Origin: a virus
Lineage: Duplodnaviria > Heunggongvirae > Uroviricota > Caudoviricetes
IMG/VR virus record: IMGVR_UViG_2630968342_000014
Strand: one strand, 5' to 3'
Length of the DNA stretch: 21,069 nucleotides
Shown: in pieces, positions 6,196-11,098 of the stretch
Layout: each line of letters starts with the position of its first letter
Position numbering within the stretch: position 1 is the stretch's first letter
Translations under genes and position numbers: made by a program
Notes under the pieces: model-generated
What the model saw: only the letters and a program-made list of their open reading frames with translations
The model's database searches: none
What the model was told of the DNA's origin: nothing

Positions 6196-6260
6196 AATAA
6201 GTCCTCACTATATTAAGATATTCAGTGATGAGATAAATAATCAGTTAATTAAGAACGATA

Positions 6261-6623
6261 TTAATGACCTGCTGCGCGGAGTTTTCCGTCAGGTTCACCG
6301 GCAAGAGTCAGTAATTGTCCCTGGTCTTCCTGCAGAATAGTCAGGCGACCACCGCGATTGACATACATCGGCGTTTCGGTGGTGTCTTCTTCGGAAATTT
6401 TCCCGCGGTTAGTCGGACGAACATATGAGAGTTTGTGTTTTATTTTCACACGGTTCTCATCAAACGGTTCGATTTCCAGGTTGAGCGAGACCTTCCCTTT
6501 GGTTTTCGTGTTCATCACACCTGAAGCGACTTCACTGAGAACAGCGCCGATTTTGGTTTCAAATACGCCGCCGTCCAGCTCCCCGATAAATGCCTGCACA
6601 TCAGTACTGCGTTCGCTAGCCAT
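6261..6623 (-). CDS. YfdP-like small protein (120 aa), first gene of the early-left operon
   Basis: The track ORF 6261-6809 begins at a TTG with an implausible Cys/Arg-rich extension. The in-frame ATG giving MASERSTDVQAFIGELDGG... is preceded by GAGGAG Shine-Dalgarno. Start coordinate derived from ORF-track frame arithmetic (codon 63 of the track ORF). Confidence 0.6.
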   Translation of the reverse strand: MASERSTDVQAFIGELDGGVFETKIGAVLSEVASGVMNTKTKGKVSLNLEIEPFDENRVKIKHKLSYVRPTNRGKISEEDTTETPMYVNRGGRLTILQEDQGQLLTLAGEPDGKLRAAGH

Positions 6624-6760
6624 TTTGCTGCTCCTCATCATATCGACCCTGCAAGGTCGGTTGGTTTCTCCACAAAACAGAGAAGAACACCTGCGGTGGC
6701 AGCCGCCCGGATGGATTGGGTTATGAGCCCGTCGTCCGGTGATGCTCTTCTCTGTTTTGT

Positions 6761-6806
6761 AAAAAGAGCGGTACCAGCCGGAAGCAAGTGTACAAACTGG
6801 TACCGC
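6761..6806 (-). terminator. Candidate intrinsic terminator in the leader of the early-left operon (tL-like)
   Basis: Minus-strand RNA: GCGGUACCAG, 19-nt loop, CUGGUACCGC, then UCUUUUUAC. Perfect 10-bp GC-rich stem (plus 6768-6777 and 6797-6806) followed by a U-tract. The plus orientation has no U-tract. Confidence 0.45.
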
Positions 6807-7094
6807 CAAAGCAGTGGCTGTTGTGGTGACCGGTGCTGATCTCCGGCTTGCGGTTATTTCAGACTCTCACGGGCGTTTAATTGCCCCGCCGAACAGCTCT
6901 TTTCCGCAATAGCTGCAATGTCTTTCGCGCATCAGCCTGCGCATTCACCACAACTCTAAGGATTCTCTCTGGTTGAAAATACTTAGCTGTTATGTGCCTG
7001 CTTTTAGCCACATCAGGCGAGGTGGACCTGGTTATTCCCCAACAACAAGGATTCGGTTAATCTGGTTATCCCCAACAACGCAAAAGGAAAAGAA

Positions 7095-7529
7095 ATGTCC
7101 GGTAATATCTACACGTTGTACAAATCCCACTGTGAAAATGTTGGAAAGTATCGGGGCATTGAAATCAGTGGGATAGTGTCATCAGTCGAAATAAGCAAAG
7201 TGGAATCAAGGGCAACATTACTTACTCTTCTGGATCTTGTCTTACATGAGCACCGGAAGAAATTCGGCACTCCCTATAATCAGTTGAATGGGAAAAAGGC
7301 TCTGGTTCACCTTATTCTGATGAAGCATCACTGGATGCCAAAACAGATTAATGAGATGAAATTTGATGAACTTCTTCTTTCAATTCAGGATGAACTCACA
7401 CTTGATAAAATAAGCGTAACCGCCCAGAAATTTTTAGATTATCGAGACTGGAGATCACAAATTCATCACTTTGATGATTTTGACGAAAATGAATGGGATC
7501 CTAATTTGTCTGCACAATATCTAAAGTAA
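7095..7529 (+). CDS. Hypothetical accessory protein (144 aa), no recognisable domain
   Basis: ATG at 7095 with AAAAGGAAAAG Shine-Dalgarno. Visibly more AT-rich than flanking phage genes. Opposite orientation to the surrounding early-left genes; two 18-19-bp direct repeats lie just upstream and a plus-strand intrinsic terminator lies downstream. Confidence 0.55.
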   Translation: MSGNIYTLYKSHCENVGKYRGIEISGIVSSVEISKVESRATLLTLLDLVLHEHRKKFGTPYNQLNGKKALVHLILMKHHWMPKQINEMKFDELLLSIQDELTLDKISVTAQKFLDYRDWRSQIHHFDDFDENEWDPNLSAQYLK

Positions 7530-7765
7530 CATCCTGTGATAAAACCGTGATTTCCTGATCCAGTTTTTTTAAGGAGTCTATTGTTTCCTGTCGATAAGAC
7601 AGCACTTCACGAAGCTGGTTTATAGCTGCCAGCTTCTTTGTCATCCACTCATAAATTTACTCATCTGTGTAGCTAGGCGCGACGATTTTGGGTTCTGTTT
7701 TGTGCATTTCACACCTCCTCAAGTTATCAGTTACTTGTTGATGGGGACCAGATTGTTAAAGAGCT

Positions 7766-7789
7766 AAGCGTCCTGTAGGGCGCTTTTTT
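7766..7789 (+). terminator. Intrinsic terminator downstream of the 144-aa gene
   Basis: AAGCGTCC-TGTA-GGGCGCTT followed by TTTTTTG: 8-bp stem including one G-U pair, tetraloop, T-run. Oriented for plus-strand transcripts only. Confidence 0.5.
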
Positions 7790-7874
7790 GTTGCTAACGA
7801 ATCATCCTGGACTTCATATGCCCCAGGCGGCTACTTCGTGGGTGTCCTGCCTGTTCGTTGTCTTAACACCTTTA

Positions 7875-7915
7875 AGTTGTAATTTAGTTGTGGTTTTGAA
7901 TGTTGTCAACAACTT
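7875..7915 (-). promoter_or_regulatory. PL-like leftward promoter overlapped by OL-like operator motifs
   Basis: On the minus strand: TTGACA (complement of 7904-7909), 17-bp spacer, TAAATT (complement of 7881-7886). Flanked and overlapped by the operator motifs found between cI and cro (ACAACTTTATG at 7909-7919 and 9562-9572; AGTTGTGG at 7886-7893 and 9595-9602). Confidence 0.5.
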
Positions 7916-7972
7916 TATGTGGTTTGAACGAGTAGCCAAGGAGTGCAAGGATTATCAAAAAAAGGAGGTTGT

Positions 7973-8863
7973 ATGGAAGACGCGCTTTACGCTTTTAATT
8001 ACACACAGAACCGGGACAAGTTATTTGCTAACTTGATTAGCATCATTGATGGAATCATTGCAGATGGAGTTGTCCGTGAAGAGGAGGTTCTTTACTTAGA
8101 TACATGGTTACTTGAAGCAAAGCAGATTATCAATAATGGAGTTATAAAAAGTCTATCTGCTCGGGTGTCGGATATTCTTGCGGATGGAATAATCACATCA
8201 GAAGAACGTGATGACCTTAAAAATAGCCTTCTCCAAATACAGAGGGAAATTCTTGATATCCCTGAAATTGATTTTTACTCCAAGGATGTAGATGTCCATT
8301 TACTTAATGGACTATGTAAAGGATTAATTGCTGATCGGAACTTAACTCAAGAAGAAATAAGATATCTTAATTGGTGGCTTGAGCAAAATGGAGCTTTGAA
8401 GAACAACTACCCAGGAAAAAAACTTTATGCACTTGTAAAGGAAATTCTTAAAGATGGTGTTATTACTGAAGATGAGAGTTTAACTCTACATAAGGCATTA
8501 GTAGACTTCACAGGATGTGACTTGGAAAGTGGGGTGGTGGATGGTTTGGCGACCAGGCTGCCTATTGATGTAGGGGCTTCGATAGAGTTAGAGGGTAAAA
8601 CCTATTGTCTTACAGGCACTTTTGTTGCAGGAAAGAGAGCCGTAGTTGAAAATTTGATTAAAAATGCTGGTGGGAACATCAGTAGTGGAATTACTCAAAA
8701 GTTGGATTTTTTAGTAATTGGGACGCTTTCCTCCCGTGATTGGAAATTCTCTAGTCACGGAAGGAAGATCGAAAAGGCTATATCTTATAGGGATGATAAT
8801 GGTGCAAAACTTAAAATTATTTCTGAAGAAATGCTTTTCGATGCATTACCAAGTTCGCGATGA
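7973..8863 (+). CDS. BRCT-domain protein with four N-terminal ~40-aa helical repeats (accessory gene)
   Basis: The track ORF starts at GTG 7943, but the ATG at 7973 has an AAAGGAGG Shine-Dalgarno. C-terminus (GKTYCLTGTFVAGKRAVVENLIKNAGGNISSGITQKLDFLVIGT...KLKIISEEMLFDAL) has the pattern of a BRCT domain like the C-terminus of NAD-dependent DNA ligase. N-terminal half carries four repeats of the form L-x-x-ILADG-x-IT-x-EE-x-x-L. AT-rich. The 3' end overlaps the cI 3' end. Confidence 0.7.
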   Translation: MEDALYAFNYTQNRDKLFANLISIIDGIIADGVVREEEVLYLDTWLLEAKQIINNGVIKSLSARVSDILADGIITSEERDDLKNSLLQIQREILDIPEIDFYSKDVDVHLLNGLCKGLIADRNLTQEEIRYLNWWLEQNGALKNNYPGKKLYALVKEILKDGVITEDESLTLHKALVDFTGCDLESGVVDGLATRLPIDVGASIELEGKTYCLTGTFVAGKRAVVENLIKNAGGNISSGITQKLDFLVIGTLSSRDWKFSSHGRKIEKAISYRDDNGAKLKIISEEMLFDALPSSR

Positions 8864-9532
8864 CCAGAATACCCTACCTATAACATGAATTCTGGCTCGT
8901 CTATCTTCAAAGGTGAGTATTTCATCTGGGTACTCATCTTTGTTGAAGCTTCTAAGAATCAAGCCACCGTCAGGTAAGTTGATAAGTATTTTAACCCTTA
9001 GCAATACACCATCTCGTACGGCATAAAGATCGCCATCACGAATAGGAACGGTTTGAGAAATATCAACGGCAACAAGATCTCCATTATTGAGAACCGGTAA
9101 TAAACTGTTCCCCCATATTTGTACGATCTTGGCATTAGATGCACATACGCCAGATTTTCTCAAATCTGCTCTTCTTAACGGAAACCAGTCAATAGCTGAT
9201 TCAACTATTTCAGCCAGACATCCGTTACCTGCCGATAACTCGACATCTAAAACAGGAATGTTTACGAAAATATCGGGGTCTAATGCGGTGCTTTCTGCTT
9301 CTTTTACAACAAGATCAGGTATGGATGCGTTGTCTTCAATACCAAGTTGTAACCACTTTTGTGATACACCTAAAACTTTTGCAATTTCTTTAATTTTGCG
9401 CGGTTGTAGAGTTTCGCCATTCTCTATTTTGGCTACAGATTGTTGTGAAAGTCCAATTTTTTCAGCTAGTTGAGCTTGGCTCATGCCAGCTTTCTCTCTA
9501 CCTATCTTTAATCGTTCTGCCAGTGTTTTCAC
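8846..9532 (-). CDS. cI: cI-like prophage repressor (HTH_XRE N-terminus, S24 LexA-like autopeptidase C-terminus)
   Basis: N-terminal XRE-type HTH (LAERLKIGREKAGMSQAQLAEKIGLSQQSVAKIENGE). Probable Ala-Gly cleavage site (ELSAGNG). Catalytic Ser (WGNSLLP) and Lys (LLRVKIL) in the C-terminal domain. GTG start at 9532 with AGAGGGA Shine-Dalgarno. Divergent from a Cro-like gene. Confidence 0.9.
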   Translation of the reverse strand: MKTLAERLKIGREKAGMSQAQLAEKIGLSQQSVAKIENGETLQPRKIKEIAKVLGVSQKWLQLGIEDNASIPDLVVKEAESTALDPDIFVNIPVLDVELSAGNGCLAEIVESAIDWFPLRRADLRKSGVCASNAKIVQIWGNSLLPVLNNGDLVAVDISQTVPIRDGDLYAVRDGVLLRVKILINLPDGGLILRSFNKDEYPDEILTFEDRRARIHVIGRVFWSSRTW

Positions 9533-9559
9533 AACATATCCCTCTCTTTTTTGATGAGG

Positions 9560-9645
9560 TTACAACTTTATGTTTTAGCTTTCCAACATCTAAAAGTTGT
9601 GGTAAAAGTTGTTAATGTTGTATTCTTGCAGCTCGTAACAACTTA
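9560..9645. promoter_or_regulatory. OR-like operator/promoter region between cI and cro (divergent promoters)
   Basis: 136-bp intergenic region with at least four copies of the half-site ACAACTT/AAGTTGT in both orientations (9562, 9594, 9606, 9638). The same motifs recur near 7870-7920. Confidence 0.6.
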
Positions 9646-9667
9646 ACTACCAAAAAAGGAGAAAGCT

Positions 9668-9916
9668 ATGACACCTGAGCAATTAGCCTTATCGGAGGCA
9701 ATCGCTCTGGCTGGTGGTCAATCAGAATTGGCTCGGAAGCTCACAGCCAGCAGCGGTCATTTAGTAAAGCAACAACATGTCTGGAACTGGTTGAACAGAG
9801 AAAAGCGTCCCCCTGCAAAGCTTTCGATATTCATTGAAAAGACCACTGGCATATCAAAAGAAAAATTACGTCCAGATATTTTTCAAAAGATTAAAGATTC
9901 ATCAGATGAAAAGTAA
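9668..9916 (+). CDS. cro: Cro-like / YdaS-like small HTH regulator
   Basis: 82-aa ORF divergent from cI. ATG at 9668 with AAAAAGGAGAAAG Shine-Dalgarno. HTH-like segment (GGQSELARKLTASSGHLVKQ). First gene of the rightward operon. Confidence 0.65.
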   Translation: MTPEQLALSEAIALAGGQSELARKLTASSGHLVKQQHVWNWLNREKRPPAKLSIFIEKTTGISKEKLRPDIFQKIKDSSDEK

Positions 9917-10821: not shown

Positions 10822-10907
10822 TTCTGCCATTTCGGGACGTTACACTGTCTCTGCACCTTATAAAGCGGGTGCCGGGATTGGCGTCCTGAAATTGATTACT
10901 GAGCATA

Positions 10908-10928
10908 ACCGCGCTCATGCGGTTTTTT
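10908..10928 (+). terminator. Candidate intrinsic terminator (tR1-like position)
   Basis: ACCGC-GCTCAT-GCGGT followed by TTTTTT: 5-bp GC-rich stem, 6-nt loop, U-tract. The reverse strand lacks a U-tract after the stem. Confidence 0.4.
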
Positions 10929-11098
10929 CGTGTCATGAGCATTGCTACGCCCAAATTATGGTGGGGCGTACAGGGCCGACTTCGGTCGGGCCGGGTTCGG
11001 TAGTCTCCGGTAACGCCAACCCTGTACGTCTCACCACCTCTGTGATTGGCGTCCCATGTGGTGAGTTTTCTAAAAAACTGACTACCGGGGCTGTCACT

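Follow-up and report, generated by a model that had tools for sequence, protein, structure and literature searches.

The 21,069-nucleotide stretch of virus DNA in IMG/VR record IMGVR_UViG_2630968342_000014 (Caudoviricetes), hereafter the window, carries a real and conserved two-part leader module in the 470-bp gap between yfdP, the first gene of its early-left operon, and an ECs1072-family gene. The module lies on the yfdP strand (minus) and consists of an intrinsic terminator (6807-6761) and a three-way-junction RNA (6760-6666) that matches no Rfam family and starts at the base directly after the terminator U-tract. The junction is neither a nut site nor a put-family RNA, and it cannot control the terminator that precedes it. 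We propose, at a probability of about 0.5, that its role lies in the processing of read-through mRNA, in the protection or insulation of the 5'-end of the message, and in first-cistron initiation via a factor that binds its P2 hairpin, a proposal argued from position and shape. The structures, conservation, covariation, strand, positions and failed family memberships described below were computed.

A preliminary description of this region had pointed to a perfect 10-bp GC stem with a U-tract on the minus strand and, next to it, a long inverted repeat enclosing an inner segment, and had called for an RNA fold of the minus strand and a covariance search across relatives. Both structures were recovered, and both analyses bore them out. 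The repeat scan placed the perfect 10-bp repeat at 6768-6777 / 6797-6806. As RNA, the stem is GC-rich and extends to 13 bp (6807-6795 with 6779-6767) with a 15-nt loop, and is followed by C and U5 (6766-6761). The fold reached -21.2 kcal/mol (z-score -4.2) and none of 200 shuffled sequences folded as well; it is a GC hairpin followed by a U-tract on the transcribed strand, which is what defines an intrinsic terminator. Our terminator scan was limited to loops of at most 8 nt and therefore missed the hairpin. In homologues, unrelated GC hairpins with T5-7 occupy the same place, so that the position is kept and the stem sequences are not. An unrelated hairpin and T-run lie directly before P1, the closing helix of the junction, in the window, SfIV, ST64B, LLS, Kp4866-6 and Eeyore, and an alignment of the window with ST64B, LLS, Kp4866-6 and Eeyore shows differing GC hairpins with T5-6 and the same junction from the next base onwards. 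Of 145 unique upstream contexts, 133 have a T-run of at least four immediately ahead of P1; among the 12 that do not, seven are antisense artefacts of the regular expression used.

The homologous hairpin of SfIV is the place where the terminator of the STnc100 model aligns. STnc100 and its relative PasD are prophage small RNAs that end at intrinsic terminators (bioRxiv 10.64898/2026.05.13.724894), and a noncoding RNA downstream of ST64B cI is induced jointly with two adjoining genes (PMC7067206). On the basis of this alignment, the small RNA precedents and the ST64B induction, we read the 6807-6761 hairpin as a putative working terminator that ends a leader RNA. The proposal in the preliminary description of an attenuator governing entry into the operon is plausible for the terminator itself. 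The junction lies 3' of the terminator and therefore cannot be what lets polymerase past it; a read-through determinant, if there is one, must sit upstream of the terminator. LLS (L005:2200-2330) and ST64B (L004:2150-2300) have a second, upstream unit of terminator and long hairpin, with a P1-like stem (CACAAC...GUUGUG) and a different interior, which seems to be a tandem duplication.

The inverted repeat, with 25-nt arms that are 84% complementary in the repeat scan (6672-6696 / 6736-6760), forms in the minus-strand RNA the 20-bp helix P1 (6760-6741 with 6691-6672), G-U pairs included. P1 encloses two inner hairpins, P2 (6739-6707), with the tip GGGCUCAUAACCC at 6730-6718, and the variable P3 (6706-6693). 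The conserved GGAGAA at 6671-6666 is able to pair with the terminator U-tract, and five weak pairs between the U-tract and GGAGA extend P1. The 100-nt unit 6765-6666 folded at -51.0 kcal/mol (z-score -8.25; 0 of 200 shuffles), and the plus strand of the region folded less well. The junction ends 43 nt upstream of the yfdP start codon. Between it and the ribosome-binding site lies a small hairpin, CGACCUUGCAGGGUCG (6644-6659, minus), in place of which homologues have a different one, GGCGGUGGCAGCCGCC. With the covariance model of the junction we found a single sense-strand copy in the window, right operon included. The Rfam 15 scan of the window at gathering thresholds gave no match to the junction, only C4 and isrK elsewhere, and a permissive scan of 6400-7300 gave only chance-level matches; ARAGORN detected no tRNA cloverleaf and no tmRNA in the window. 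Two further candidates were discarded. A TTTACA at the U-tract/P1 boundary resembles a -35 element of a sigma-70 promoter but has no -10 element at 16-18 nt in any variant, and the consensus promoter scan found no sigma-70 site on the minus strand of 6625-7094. As for a pseudoknot between the P2 loop and the beginning of the first gene, AUG or AUGA(G) was the only sequence in common, so that none is conserved.

The boundaries of BLAST homology are nested around the module: 6625-6960 is shared with many phages, 6625-6828 with others and 6625-6808 with the SfV/SfIV group, in which homology begins exactly at the terminator. Only 6660-6766 is recognisable in Salmonella and Klebsiella phages, at 85% identity. 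The segment 6200-7300, covering yfdP and the leader, had a match in 2981 of 5426 complete Escherichia coli genomes, and one prophage (NZ_CP075632.1) is 99.9% identical to the window over this segment. A pattern scan of viral contigs recovered at least 120 loci and at least 86 distinct cores from at least 127 matches. Among 25 representatives, the proposed junction structure was 94.2% paired, compared to 38-51% in slid controls. Ten pairs were changed on both sides (for example, C-G in 13 and G-C in 12, or A-U in 17 and G-C in 8 of the 25), and none of 500 shuffles scored as high. P2 is nearly invariant, and P3 is a helix of varying length, from 14 to about 40 nt.

We considered the possibility that the inverted repeat acts as DNA, as paired sites for a dimeric regulator, a cruciform or a recombination site, and that the RNA fold is incidental. 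Symmetric changes in the arms of a palindromic operator would also look compensatory, and words of the CACAAC / GUUGUG type occur repeatedly, both in the leader and among the cI-cro operators. However, G-U pairs are kept on the yfdP strand only (U-G in 20 of 25 at pair 31-109), where the other strand has A-C mismatches, and the covariance model scored the sense strand at 116 bits and the antisense strand at 41.5 bits, a difference of about 75 bits. P2 and P3 covary as well, P3 changes its length as a helix does, and the element is common to phages with unrelated repressors and operators. The retention of G-U pairs and the scores of the two strands identify the junction as a sense-strand RNA, and we hold a function as DNA to be very improbable.

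The first gene after the junction is mostly YfdP, but two RdgC-like families, a YfdR-like HD protein and a Xis-like protein also occur in this place. The distance from the junction to the start codon is about 35-60 nt whichever gene is first. Since the first gene varies, the junction belongs to the operon leader and does not serve as a yfdP operator. In 12 viral contigs (L009, L022 and L208-L217, e.g. L208:3480-3600), a late-operon variant that shares P2 but has another P1 is flanked by the Q-dependent terminator upstream and by holin-endolysin genes downstream. The upstream gene at these loci encodes the Q antiterminator (PF03589), and in L208 and L214 a bona fide STnc100 of 84-86 bits precedes the late variant by about 240 nt. 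No late-type junction was found in the NZ_CP075632.1 prophage. Scanning one genome per species gave 47 loci, 32 of them with a full junction above 100 bits; 30 of these 32 are titled as Enterobacterales genera, and the other two, Chryseobacterium and Geobacteraceae, are suspected to be contamination or mis-binning.

We placed the module relative to its likely promoter by a consensus scan of 6200-9800. The best sigma-70-like match (10 of 12 positions) was TTGACA, a 17-nt spacer and TAAATT at 7909-7881 on the minus strand, which is probably the early-left promoter pL. The adjoining 12-mer ACAACTTTATGT (7909-7920) has an identical copy in the cI-cro operator region. Homology to SfIV ends at 7861, and at pL the window, SfIV and ST64B each have a different operator set, with promoter-like hexamers and then the same 65-nt sequence. 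LLS has a promoter flanked by operator repeats on the same strand, about 350 nt upstream of the terminator. This evidence from the window and LLS places the terminator and the junction within the leader and not upstream of its promoter, in agreement with the preliminary description, which had them on the sense strand ahead of the early-left operon. The leader of the window would be about 1.25 kb long and run antisense through the ECs1072-family gene, with the junction about 1.1 kb from pL.

Directly after the probable pL we found a second conserved RNA (7859-7796, minus), made up of a closing stem, an invariant core AGGCAGGACGCCCACGAAGUAGCCGCC, a hairpin B and GGAUGA. In 31 sequences, 94.9% of the cells were paired, eight pairs were changed on both sides and one pair occurred as four pair types; covariation was 0.425 compared to 0.099 in shuffled alignments, with 0 of 500 shuffles reaching it. 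RNAalifold agreed on the two varying stems and paired the invariant core differently. The loci examined contain 155 sites of this promoter-proximal RNA; at 74 of them the junction follows on the same strand, at a distance of 293-1736 nt. It is present in SfV, SfII, SfIV, phiNP, ST64B, ZF40, Yersinia and Pantoea phages, mEp237, SPN3UB and T5-like Providencia phages, and almost all of these records leave it without annotation. A permissive Rfam search of 7300-8000 gave only chance-level matches. The RNA occurs once in the window. Because it precedes the terminators, it is a better candidate than the junction for setting read-through, and we regard it as a candidate antitermination site or a candidate site for loading RNA polymerase or ribosomes.

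The preliminary description had also noted a boxA-like string, the lack of an N gene and a possible likeness of the leader to the put RNAs of HK022, and these claims fared differently. The string CGCUCUUUUUACAAAAC is present on the minus strand from 6770 down to 6754, but it is a composite of the 3' arm of the terminator, the U-tract and the opening bases of P1. At this site homologues have CCGUCCUUUUUAC, CGACCUUUUUAC and GCACCUUUUUUAC; the GCUCUU part varies (GUCCUU, GACCUU, CACCUU, GCCCUU), which leaves the U-tract and the P1 start as the sole constant parts. We therefore rejected the string as a boxA (CGCUCUUA / UGCUCUUUAACAA) of a lambda-type nut site, since it varies among homologues. The lack of N held in all three places where we looked: there is no Arg-rich open reading frame between the likely pL and yfdP, no N family of Pfam among the neighbouring proteins, and no N annotation of RefSeq in the NZ_CP075632.1 prophage. 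A 44-aa basic open reading frame with a GTG start (MAKSRHITAKYF...RKRAVRRGN) in a window-specific segment (6877-7011, minus) matched no family and is probably not a gene.

The put likeness did not survive. We built a put covariance model from HK022 putL, HK022 putR and HK639 putL, the last taken from the annotation of its record, and this model recovered its own three sequences at 72-100 bits. It gave nothing at E<=10 in the window, where the promoter-proximal RNA is thereby included, or in SfIV, ST64B, LLS, Kp4866-6 and L095. A blastn-short search with the put sequences gave chance words only, and the models of the junction and of the promoter-proximal RNA found nothing in HK022 or HK639. A put site lies between the promoter and the terminators that it suppresses; in 133 of the 145 contexts the terminator comes first and the junction follows. 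HK022 has copies in both early operons, and the window has one sense-strand copy of the junction and no second, putR-like copy of either the junction or the promoter-proximal RNA. The HK639 record has only putL annotated, plus a differing 'M3-like RNA' on the right. Without a match in sequence or structure, with the order reversed and with a single copy, the junction was rejected as a member of the put family.

The junction might nevertheless act as a cis-acting processive antiterminator in the manner of put without belonging to its family, the nascent RNA binding polymerase and carrying it past downstream terminators of the early-left and late operons. Put-like RNA antitermination was suspected for this group of phages in the LLS genome paper (PMC12315714). 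The lack of an N gene would leave room for such an RNA, the junction heads long operons of two kinds, and the copies in L095, L162 and L174 resemble putL in having a promoter with operators about 25 nt away; moreover, the presence of its apical module across phyla (see below) suggests a universal partner such as RNA polymerase. Against this, the junction bears no similarity to put, in about 96% of contexts it comes after a terminator that it cannot affect, the late operons already have Q, and the right operon of the window has no copy. No strong intrinsic terminators were predicted inside the early-left operon, and another conserved RNA is better placed, directly after pL. We consider put-like action of the junction unlikely.

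Further upstream, the leader is modular. The minus-strand segment 6812-6960 is a multi-hairpin domain closed by a perfect 10-bp repeat, GUUGUGGUGA (6954-6945) and UCACCACAAC (6829-6820). It occupies the place of an STnc100-like domain in SfIV and ST64B, for which it is a different, replacing segment that keeps the closing helix. The SfIV leader matched the full STnc100 model (RF02076) at 38.4 bits and the ST64B leader matched it partially at 35.1 bits, both below the gathering score of 47, and neither is a member of the family by this threshold. Bona fide copies score 84-166 bits and lie in late leaders; the NZ_CP075632.1 prophage has two of them in tandem (141 and 166 bits; L339:6293-6985), after three tRNA genes and upstream of a SASA-family esterase gene and a holin gene. 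The 142 bp at 6819-6960 are 97% identical to a stretch in IME207 and in the P1-like phages RCS47 and JL22, and look like a leader module that has passed between phages of unrelated types. In RCS47 and JL22, the counterpart is annotated under a 'plp' lipoprotein gene. A conserved leader box, CCACCUCGCCUGAUGUGGCUAAAAGCAGGC (6996-7027, minus), is 93% identical to the first approximately 40 nt of the predicted LLS pL transcript.

On these observations we propose that the module forms the distal end of the pL-operon leader, which would be long, modular and untranslated. The two parts of the module travel together. Unmodified polymerase would be stopped at the terminator, giving a leader RNA of the STnc100 type. 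The junction would be made only on read-through transcripts and would act after the termination decision, with read-through set upstream and the promoter-proximal RNA just after pL as the best candidate for setting it. P1 is a closing helix of 20-25 bp, with a length and conserved mismatches that would suit a duplex of the RNase III type, and its possible effects are to separate leader from message, or to protect or insulate the 5'-end of the latter. The invariant P2 hairpin may dock a conserved host factor, which would influence how the first cistron is expressed. Promoter use, termination, processing and factor binding are what we infer from the computed features.

Several observations weigh against this proposal. 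A promoter with operators stands before the junction in L095, L162 and L174, and no T-run does in L065 and L175; the junction can thus stand alone at the start of a transcript, the place expected of a put-like antiterminator. A post-transcriptional role is argued from position and shape, and RNase III recognition is not reliably predictable. The putative pL is about 1.1 kb away, across the ECs1072-family gene in antisense, and a nearer promoter missed by the consensus scan is possible. The terminator loop is 15 nt in the window, and ST64B and Kp4866-6 have long inserts, so the leader terminator may be weak. Finally, the 6812-6960 domain of the window has no STnc100 match (6400-7300, E<=10).

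One candidate for what P2 does arises from its tip. Together with the preceding C, the tip is a 14-nt run identical to the anticodon arm of a tRNA that we take to be E. coli tRNA-fMet. The tRNA sequence used occurs at 100% identity in 5426 of 5426 E. coli genomes (median 4 copies), and the P2-tip string also occurs in papers on tRNA-fMet. In a sample retrieved by P1 only, 95 of 123 copies had the canonical P2 motif. The variants in this sample, which was not selected on P2, included UUCAUAA, CCCAUAA (with U33 lost), CUCCUAA and a GUG-CCCUAA-CAC tip, with changes at positions 32, 33 and 35, so mimicry of the anticodon arm is not strict. The 21-nt apical module of P2, GACGGGCUCAUNNCCCAAUCC, also caps perfect hairpins of 8-19 bp and unrelated sequence in distant phyla (L297, L303, L310, L313, L314, L323, L332 and L336), covering Planctomycetes, Phycisphaerae, Acidobacteria, Saccharibacteria and Alpha-, Delta- and Gammaproteobacteria. 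A few pattern hits would be expected by chance in the collection scanned, but the surrounding hairpins would not; the pattern fixed the loop bases, so the hits are no measure of loop conservation. Four non-enterobacterial hits (L296, L301, L309, L312) lie in coding sequence without a hairpin and were set aside as chance, as was, probably, L335, which lies among baseplate genes. Several of the distant hairpins stand just upstream of open reading frames resembling phage portal, head or connector genes, and the L313 module (Saccharibacteria) stands upstream of one resembling an aspartyl-tRNA synthetase.

These observations raise the possibility that the P2 tip works by mimicking the anticodon arm of initiator tRNA. 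It would engage the 30S P site or initiation factor 3 (IF3), or methionyl-tRNA synthetase, or would decoy nucleases that cut tRNA-fMet, such as VapC. Winther and Gerdes (2011) reportedly found that VapC of Shigella and Salmonella cuts tRNA-fMet in its anticodon loop, and the suggested link to VapC is based on that report. The 14-nt identity, the share of canonical copies after retrieval by P1, the constant 35-60 nt to the start codon and the capping of unrelated hairpins across phyla, several beside phage head genes, all speak for mimicry. On the other side are the unselected variants, the fixed loop bases behind the cross-phylum hits, and positions 37-38, which vary freely (AA, UA, UC, AC, CC). 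Moreover, the match covers no more than the loop and its three G-C pairs, beyond which the arm differs, ARAGORN saw no tRNA, and the resemblance was noticed after the fact. We regard functional mimicry as quite unlikely. The same low weight applies to its general form, in which the hairpin GAC-GGG-CUCAUAA-CCC-AAUCC would be a working copy of the initiator-tRNA arm in major-operon leaders of phages of many phyla, capturing either the 30S P site together with IF3 or a tRNA-fMet-specific enzyme or nuclease. If it were true, P2 would control initiation at the first cistron or blunt a tRNA-targeting defence, which would be a new phage route to exploit the translation-initiation machinery.

The window as a whole is a lambdoid prophage without an N gene, or possibly with a very divergent one. 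On the minus strand, int (75-1361) is followed by xis, several small genes, yfdR and yfdQ. The early-left operon starts with yfdP (6261-6623, 120 aa, ATG at 6623-6621), which has a Shine-Dalgarno sequence, GAGGAG, at 6636-6631 and whose product matched no Pfam family. Beyond the gap that houses the leader structures, the ECs1072-family gene (7095-7529, plus) lies inside the early-left leader on the opposite strand and looks like an inserted moron. Just upstream of it, at 7021-7079, are two direct repeats of CTGGTTAT(T)CCCCAACAAC, 33-34 bp apart and common to SfIV, which may be a regulator binding site for the moron; two plus-strand terminator-like hairpins (7611-7636 and 7766-7785) follow the gene. 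A BRCT-domain gene (7943-8863, plus) lies between pL and cI, an unusual occupant of the rex position, and converges on the gene of the LexA-like cI repressor (8846-9532, minus), overlapping the 3' end of cI by 18 bp. The cro-like gene (9668-9916, plus) comes next, and the right operon follows. Farther along the window, isrK (59 bits) and a C4 antisense RNA (82 bits), both from Rfam, are adjacent at 10853-11041 (plus), inside or next to a Rha-family (antirepressor-type) gene; the pair is an immunity module of the P1/P7 style in a lambdoid prophage.

Lambdoid phages of the SfV, SfIV, ST64B and LLS type lack N, and put-like antitermination had been only a guess for them (PMC12315714). The guess can now be replaced by defined objects, namely a likely pL, a promoter-proximal RNA, a leader terminator and a junction, each with coordinates, a covariance model and natural variants. 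Neither of the two conserved RNAs is in Rfam, and the junction occurs in many Enterobacterales genera.

Several known systems come close to the module. Among them are the hairpin of the lambda pL leader upstream of N and the early sites of T7, which are processed by RNase III. Like these, P1 is a long imperfect duplex between a regulatory site in the leader and the ribosome-binding site of the first cistron, and cleavage in the duplex would uncouple the leader from the message. There is, however, no sequence relation to the lambda and T7 sites, and the lambda hairpin has neither a conserved three-way junction nor an invariant inner hairpin. The lambda nutL site (boxA and boxB), which acts with N, also lies between pL and the first early-left gene, but here the boxA-like string is not conserved and there is neither a 15-nt boxB hairpin with a pentaloop nor an N gene. 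HK022 putL and putR and HK639 putL are, like the junction, cis-acting structured RNAs in early leaders of phages without a lambda-type N (HK022 has Nun), and some junction copies stand directly after a promoter, as putL does. In contrast, put is about 70 nt long with two stems and the junction is a 95-nt three-way structure with a 20-bp closing helix; put precedes the terminators that it suppresses and the junction follows one; and HK022 has a put site in each early operon where the window has one copy. The terminator half of the module resembles the leader small RNAs made by early termination, such as STnc100, PasD, StxS and lambda 6S RNA, in that the terminator of the SfIV homologue aligns with that of STnc100 and true copies of STnc100 lie in late leaders, including that of the prophage nearly identical to the window. 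It differs from them in that the domain of the window has no model match, SfIV and ST64B stay below threshold, and the three-way junction lies outside the family model. Finally, the thrS operator mimics the anticodon arm of tRNA-Thr and, like P2, is a 5'-leader hairpin that resembles a tRNA anticodon stem-loop and stands shortly before a ribosome-binding site, but thrS is a gene-specific case of autoregulation by its own synthetase, whereas the junction stands before unrelated phage genes.

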